Below, piece by piece: positions 31,842-32,040 of a stretch of 64,000 nt of DNA. Each line of letters opens with the position of its first letter. The first letter of the stretch is position 1. The notes beneath the pieces are model-generated. The model searched no databases and was not told the DNA's origin. It saw nothing but the letters and a program-made list of their open reading frames with translations. The position numbers and the translations under genes were made by a program. Source of the DNA: Escherichia coli (GTDB taxonomy: Bacteria > Pseudomonadota > Gammaproteobacteria > Enterobacterales > Enterobacteriaceae); the NCBI RefSeq assembly GCF_965641715.1, contig NZ_OZ282453.1; one strand, given 5' to 3'.

Positions 31842-32040
31842 TGTTCATTCCACGGACAAAAACAGAGAAAGGAAACGACAAAGGCCAAAAAGCTCGCTTT
31901 CAGCACCTGTCGTTTCCTTTCTTTTCAGAGGGTATTTTAAATAAAAACATTAAGTTATGACGAAGAAGAACGGAAACGCCTTAAACCGGAAAATTTTCAT
32001 AAATAGCGAAAACCCGCGCGCCTGACGCCCCGTGGTTATC
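31842..32040. other. cos region (cosB-like sequence next to Nu1; cosN predicted near 32019..32030)
   Basis: Region upstream of Nu1 is near-identical to the lambda left end (...cggaaacgccttaaaccggaaaattttcataaatagcgaaaacccgcg) but the 12 nt at the lambda cohesive-end position read cgcctgacgccc instead of aggtcgccgccc. Confidence 0.6.

Follow-up and report, generated by a model that had tools for sequence, protein, structure and literature searches.

In 2017, Vahanian et al. reportedly devoted a survey to natural cosN variation, in Virology 509:140. In the part of a citing paper that describes it (PMC9303873), the first 4 bp of cosN and the 2-bp flanks are given as conserved. Lambda-like phages often differ from one another within bp 7-12, with N15 and phiD326 differing from lambda at positions 9 and 12, and Gifsy-1 at positions 8, 9 and 11 (PMC4669245). 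Mutations that fall within cosN's right half have a minimal effect on cutting, gpA being anchored by the small terminase subunit, TerS, at cosB (Feiss et al. 2015, PMC4669245). The left half is functionally more sensitive, and the CG steps beside the nicks, together with cosQ, are conserved (PMC4669245). Furthermore, the terminase of lambda does not discriminate between the cosN of lambda and that of N15 (PMC4669245), and lambda carrying cosN-N15 gives yields as good as those of the wild type (PMC4669245, Table 4). Within cosB, R3 is a critical binding site for gpNu1, and its spacing from cosN is also critical (PMC9026076). Among other relatives, the cosN of phages LLS and mEp213 has been inferred to be GGGCGGCGCGCT (PMC12315714).

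The DNA analysed here, referred to as the window, is a stretch of 64,000 nucleotides (64 kb) from Escherichia coli. It has one cos site, which is very probably, as judged from its sequence, the working cos of a full-length lambda-like prophage at the Rac/ttcA locus, with a natural allele of cosN. The site is read on the minus strand because both Nu1 and A lie on that strand, and the order of elements is cosQ, a 22-bp spacer, GGGCGTCAGGCG, CGCGGGTTTTCGCTATTTATG and onwards to R3, R2, R1, Nu1 and A (Table 1). The plus strand at the cohesive-end position (32019-32030) reads cgcctgacgccc, which corresponds to 5'-GGGCGTCAGGCG-3' in the sense of the genes. A search of the 64-kb window for a second cosN-like site found none.

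Table 1. Coordinates of the cos site, the terminase genes and other features of the prophage in the window
Feature	Position	Strand	Remarks
cosQ GGGTCCT	32053..32059	-	exact lambda cosQ heptamer; packaging-termination signal; invariant across all aligned relatives
cosQ-cosN spacer, 22 bp	32031..32052	-	unlike lambda in sequence, 1 bp shorter, ends in conserved ACG
cosN	32017..32032	-	12-mer GGGCGTCAGGCG (32030..32019) with flanking CG dinucleotides
Predicted nicks	32031/32030; 32019/32018		first on minus strand, second on plus strand
cosB R3, bp 50-65	31966..31981	-	sequence and distance from cosN identical to lambda
R3-R2 interval, IHF site I1	31924..31965	-	lambda-identical; I1 assigned by homology (PMC4669245)
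cosB R2, inverted R element, lambda bp 108-123	31908..31923	-	lambda-identical
cosB R1, lambda bp 151-166	31865..31880	-	lambda-identical
Nu1, small terminase, TerS, 181 aa	31296..31841	-	ATG at 31841
A, large terminase, TerL, 641 aa	29396..31321	-	cosN-nicking endonuclease
Two holins and GH108 endolysin	33119-34587
tRNA-Gly(UCC) gene	34782-34856	-
AraC-family regulator ORF, 267 aa	35274-36077	-	TTG start
DUF1133/Q-like antiterminator	36261-36923
RecE-like exonuclease VIII gene	48124-50109
Integrase	52576-53811		beside ttcA and dbpA, the Rac attachment locus

Most of this site is that of lambda. The two share the cosQ heptamer (GGGTCCT at 32059..32053, upstream of cosN), the CG steps at the nicks, the cohesive end at bp 1-5, 7 and 11 (7 of 12 positions), and both the sequence and the spacing of R3, I1, R2 and R1, with R3 at bp 50-65 in each. 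The complex cosB, R3-I1-R2-R1, lies directly upstream of a Nu1 homologue, and the neighbouring TerS and TerL belong to the lambda Nu1/A family. At cosN, the left end (bp 1-4) is kept and CG steps stand on both sides, as ACG-GGGCGTCAGGCG-CGCG. The 12-mer itself is different: in comparison with GGGCGGCGACCT in the lambda reference (record PV340536) it is changed at bp 6, 8, 9, 10 and 12, and so the exact cohesive end of the class that includes lambda, 21, phi80 and 434 is absent from the window. From the end of the 12-mer to the start of Nu1 (bp 13-189), by contrast, 176 of 177 positions are identical to lambda, the sole change and the single difference in cosB being C150T, just outside R1. The differences therefore cluster within the 12-mer (5/12 vs 1/177; Fisher p = 2.4e-6), which bears out the original prediction of a cosN segment unlike that of lambda next to a lambda-like cosB and Nu1 side. 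On the upstream side of cosN, the resemblance to lambda is confined to cosQ and the terminal ACG; the intervening spacer is unrelated in sequence and places cosQ 22 bp from the nick, compared with 23 bp in lambda. This type of spacer is also found in the prophages of SE11, C41, ETEC1738 and CFSAN018748, and is associated with four different cosN alleles.

Four of the five changes lie in the tolerant right half of cosN, and the one outside it is G6T, in the left half at the centre of the site. The variant overhang has a G+C content of 10/12, and its nearest-neighbour duplex dG37 is -17.9 kcal/mol, as against -18.2 kcal/mol for lambda. Because G+C content and duplex stability are preserved in this way, self-annealing of the variant ends is unaffected, and cross-annealing with lambda-type ends, mismatched at 5 of 12 positions, should be poor.

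The same comparison can be extended to other phages. The 12-mer in the window is different from those of N15, phiD326, Gifsy-1, mEp213 and LLS, and it has more changes from lambda (five), one of which, G6T, is in the central left half. The cohesive end of N15 is GGGCGGCGTCCG, with T12G common to N15 and the window, but N15 has a single-R cosB whereas that of the window is of the complex lambda type. A further comparison is with the phages PhiR46_1 and YDC107_1 and N15-like phage-plasmids, which have the 12-mer GGGCGGAAGGCG. They share with the window the right half AGGCG, a lambda-type cosB and a gpA ∼99% identical to that of lambda. GGGCGGAAGGCG differs from the window 12-mer at bp 6 and 7 (GA in place of TC), and the phage-plasmids are protelomerase replicons, in contrast to the integrated prophage in the window.

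The terminase encoded beside the variant cosN is indistinguishable from that of lambda, and the variant comes with no specialised endonuclease. Its gpA is identical to lambda gpA at 638 of 641 residues (99.5%; D185E, S268A and I459V), and Nu1 at 178 of 181 (98.3%; Q71L, A75T and L132I). Covariation was analysed in 48 full-length homologues of gpA, 15 from AGGCG-type and 33 from lambda-type sites, and no gpA residue among them was fixed for a class of cosN allele, the best being T450I in 3 of the 15. Associations between Nu1 residues and alleles were partial, and are consistent with linkage. A special terminase is not needed, since gpA is so nearly that of lambda and the changed positions are naturally variable and tolerated (PMC4669245). 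In this respect, of the two alternatives that had been put forward for this site, the one in which the terminase cuts a non-lambda cosN is favoured by the register of the site, the lambda-like gpA and the natural variability of the positions concerned.

The cosN in the window is thus most probably a real and functional natural allele that is cut at the canonical positions. In the proposed mechanism, gpNu1 would bind the lambda-identical R3, R2 and R1 elements, with IHF at I1, and this binding would position gpA for the introduction of nicks 12 bp apart at the conserved CG steps on either side. Virion DNA would then end in 5' overhangs, GGGCGTCAGGCG on the left and CGCCTGACGCCC on the right, in place of those of lambda. 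What matters at the site is kept, namely bp 1-5, bp 11, the CG step on each side, the distance from cosN to R3, and cosQ, and the 12-mer is changed only where lambda-like phages vary freely. The anatomy of the site, its pattern of conservation, its distribution in populations and the lack of covariation with the terminase are shown here; we infer that cleavage takes place at these exact bonds and that the prophage is inducible.

The distribution of the allele in natural populations provides a wider context for this reading. Exact 36-mers spanning cosN were counted in 5,426 complete E. coli genomes. The window allele GGGCGTCAGGCG with its flanks was present in 60 of them, and two sister alleles, GGGCGGAAGGCG and GGGCGGCAGGCG, in 155 and 8, respectively. 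AGGCG-type cos sites are therefore found in about 4% of complete E. coli genomes (60 + 8 + 155, from separate searches in which genomes may overlap). An unselected sample was provided by 118 IMG/VR contigs that carry the 30-mer proximal to lambda cosB, in which the 12-mer was that of lambda in 101, GGGCGGAAGGCG in 13, the window allele in one, and a singleton in three. Variation across these 118 sites is confined to bp 6-10 and 12, bp 1-5, bp 11 and the flanks being effectively invariant, with natural variation seen at bp 6 (T, A) and at bp 7 (A). The original prediction had also raised the possibility that the segment would match an existing cos variant, and in substance it does, the 12-mer and its flanks being found in the 60 E. 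coli genomes and in 14 IMG/VR contigs.

Those 14 contigs comprise four phage contexts with lambda Nu1/A and 10 satellites. The phage contexts represent three further backgrounds on the cosQ side (loci L025/L146, L140 and L152), so that the allele together with lambda Nu1/A is found on at least four phage cosQ-side backgrounds, including that of the window. Full lambda-like phages with the exact allele are nevertheless rare, and only two complete genomes have it together with both flanks of the window. Conversely, the flank on the cosQ side is found with other alleles. Prophages in SE11, APEC E19035 and EC71 share this sequence and have the 12-mer GGGCGGCAGGCG, those in C41 and ETEC1738 share the flank and have the lambda 12-mer, and that in CFSAN018748 combines the flank with GGGCGGAAGGCG but differs in cosB and TerS. 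In the last of these (locus L130, 4001-4944) the cosQ-side flank is 99% identical to that of the window, and Nu1 only 83% identical. Since cosN alleles recur on different cosQ-side and cosB backgrounds, they are unlinked to either flank, and cos is a mosaic junction.

Both sister alleles occur in prophages with an intact gpA that is 98-99.8% identical to that of lambda. Two deposited phage genomes have GGGCGGAAGGCG, those of PhiR46_1 (host ECOR13) and YDC107_1, the status of PhiR46_1 as a propagated phage being given by record metadata only. A further 23 records with GGGCGGAAGGCG are of plasmids from E. coli, Shigella sonnei and E. albertii, which are non-mobilizable and 38-92 kb in length, with many of ∼46 kb. 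Of these, the plasmid that was examined, pEC21Z151-46K (46 kb; locus L157), is an N15-like phage-plasmid that encodes a protelomerase and a RepA-type replication protein, and has Nu1/A, head and tail genes of lambda type that make up a full virion module. The exact T-containing 12-mer of the window was in no deposited phage record. A full-text literature search with the 12-mers of the three alleles, on both strands, gave incidental matches in unrelated papers only, and none in the context of phages. Natural variation within cosN's right half has already been described; this specific allele and its predominance in one family of satellites were not found in the literature searched.

The satellites in question are PICIs that encode their own TerS. 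The window allele lies within such an element in about 50 of the 60 E. coli genomes that have it, and in 10 of the 14 contigs from IMG/VR. These Gram-negative PICIs, seen among the related loci L134-L138 and L141-L151 and in L158:1-13300, are ∼11 kb in length and have a Nu1-like TerS of 180 aa but no TerL, and are arranged in the order primase, SSB, capsid, decoration protein, HTH regulator, cos and TerS. Several of them are inserted in a lambda-like prophage, within its major capsid gene, an arrangement of helper-embedded PICIs that has been described previously (PMC10111431). The cos of TerS-encoding PICIs, including the helper-embedded capE type (PMC6092414, PMC10111431), has the same cosQ, the same GGGCGTCAGGCG and the same next 22 bp as the window. 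It differs in having its own cosB and TerS in a satellite without TerL, whereas the window has the lambda cosB in a complete phage. Assignment of the window itself as a PICI cos (int-alpA-primase-capsid, no TerL, non-phage cosB) was rejected, as the lambda cosB, gpA and a full set of head and tail genes are present, and the PICI marker proteins match the window only at ∼40% identity, to the E and D genes of the phage itself. A sequence search of the PDB with the PICI TerS-like protein gave no match.

In the strain STEC711, the enclosing prophage has the lambda cosN and a gpA that shares 99.4% identity with lambda gpA, and the embedded PICI, which lacks TerL, has the window allele. If this PICI is mobilised by its host prophage, the pairing implies that one lambda-type TerL must cut both alleles. 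The window allele is absent from EcCICFT073, an experimentally tested PICI that lambda and phi80 have been shown to package, and both its cos sites have the lambda cosN. In E. coli CFT073 (locus L139) these two sites, at 2529-3339 and 39715, are oppositely oriented and have different downstream sequences. The neighbouring icd prophage of this strain has the lambda 12-mer followed by CGCGGTTTTTCAC.

The predominance of the allele in PICIs also bears on its origin. The 12-mer could have been acquired by the phage from a satellite, by recombination or by correction of cohesive-end mismatches within the ∼45 bp around cosN that satellites and helpers share, a possibility that is compatible with function and that we hold tentatively. 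It would fit with the proportion of allele-bearing genomes and contigs in which the allele is in a PICI, with the location of these PICIs inside lambda-like prophages, and with the lack of linkage between cosN alleles and either flank. Exchange in this interval around cosN is shown by PICIs (L134, L141, L144 and L147) with a lambda-type cosB and a Nu1 that is 71% identical. Against this, the SE11-type flank shared with the window already has GGGCGGCAGGCG, which is converted to GGGCGTCAGGCG by one substitution, G6T, and therefore a single mutation explains the allele equally well. The allele could equally have arisen by this substitution, or by exchange with PICIs through the identical ACG upstream and the identical 22 bp downstream.

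Whichever route was taken, the allele would be a working one, as set out above. It has to be weighed against the suggestion that cosN has decayed and become non-cleavable in a prophage that no longer packages its DNA, with the five differences as accumulated damage, which we consider very unlikely. Damage might account for a change, G6T, in the half of cosN that is functionally more sensitive, the left (PMC4669245), and for the scarcity of complete genomes (two) that combine the allele with both flanks of the window. However, it would not leave cosB (176/177), Nu1, A and all of the head and tail ORFs untouched or stay within naturally variable positions, nor would it yield one and the same 12-mer in 60 genomes, next to several flanks that are unrelated, and in satellites that have to be packaged. 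From Nu1 onwards, the terminase, head and tail ORFs A, W, B, C, D, E, FI, FII, Z, U, V, G, T, H, M, L, K, I and J are all full length, and nothing in the window suggests a packaging-defective remnant. For the same reason a defective cos remnant of the type in K-12 Rac, DLP12 and Qin was considered and rejected, the head, tail and terminase ORFs being full length and the integrase present.

The second of the alternatives put forward originally, that the true nick site is offset from the lambda-homologous position of cosN, is scarcely credible: apart from the sequence difference, only the spacer shortened by 1 bp speaks for it, and it is rejected because ACG, 12 bp and CGCGGG align gap-free and in register in lambda, phiSTEC1575-Stx2k, an Stx1a phage and six prophages of E. 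coli, and because R3 starts at bp 50 from the proposed nick as in lambda, a critical spacing (PMC9026076), with cosQ upstream and no other candidate for cosN in the window.

As regards mechanism, a natural allele at the canonical position adds little that is new; the population counts confirm the published rule that lambda terminase recognises cosN by its flanks and its left end and disregards the greater part of its right half. There are practical consequences, however. Annotation pipelines and tools that predict phage ends should not expect the exact lambda 12-mer beside a lambda-like Nu1/A. Ends of the AGGCG type would not anneal with those of lambda, which is relevant to reuse in cosmids or in vitro packaging and to the prediction of viable recombinants. 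The occurrence of one allele in both phages and TerS-encoding PICIs marks out the few dozen bp around cosN as a place where exchange between helpers and satellites occurs. A speculative and rather unlikely extension is that cosN alleles are cohesive-end compatibility groups, and act as a partial barrier to recombination among co-infecting lambda-like phages and between helpers and satellites. If this were true, recombinant concatemers with one cos of each type would give ends too mismatched to cyclise (4-5 of 12 bases). The near-exclusive use of the window allele by one family of PICIs inside helpers with the lambda cosN would be a selected feature, and the allele would occasionally be transferred into phages such as that in the window.

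Identity to E. coli EC416 and PEC41 reaches 98-99% only from ∼9.7 to 34.4 kb, and elsewhere the window is a different mosaic. Mapping of the EC416 annotation onto the whole window failed outside this region, and the ends were annotated directly. The interval between the Q antiterminator and the holins is a frequent cargo slot of lambdoid phages. In the window (34782-36077), the tRNA-Gly(UCC) gene and the AraC-family ORF lie in this interval, between the Q-like antiterminator and the holins; EC416 and PEC41 instead have tRNA-Ile, tRNA-Arg and a TerB-family gene. The interval from the GH108 endolysin to cosQ (32060-33118; ∼1.06 kb) has no recognisable spanin gene, and contains only two small ORFs on the minus strand, at 32744-32917 and 32551-32784, that match PHROGs of unknown function. 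A scan of 31700-33200 identified seven terminator-like hairpins, compared with 1.5 expected. The Rac-site end of the prophage, with the integrase, ttcA and dbpA, is at 52576-56300. At the other end (7033-7713), a porin ORF covers profile positions 1-192 of 337 and is possibly a truncated ompN; it is followed by ydbK and ldhA.
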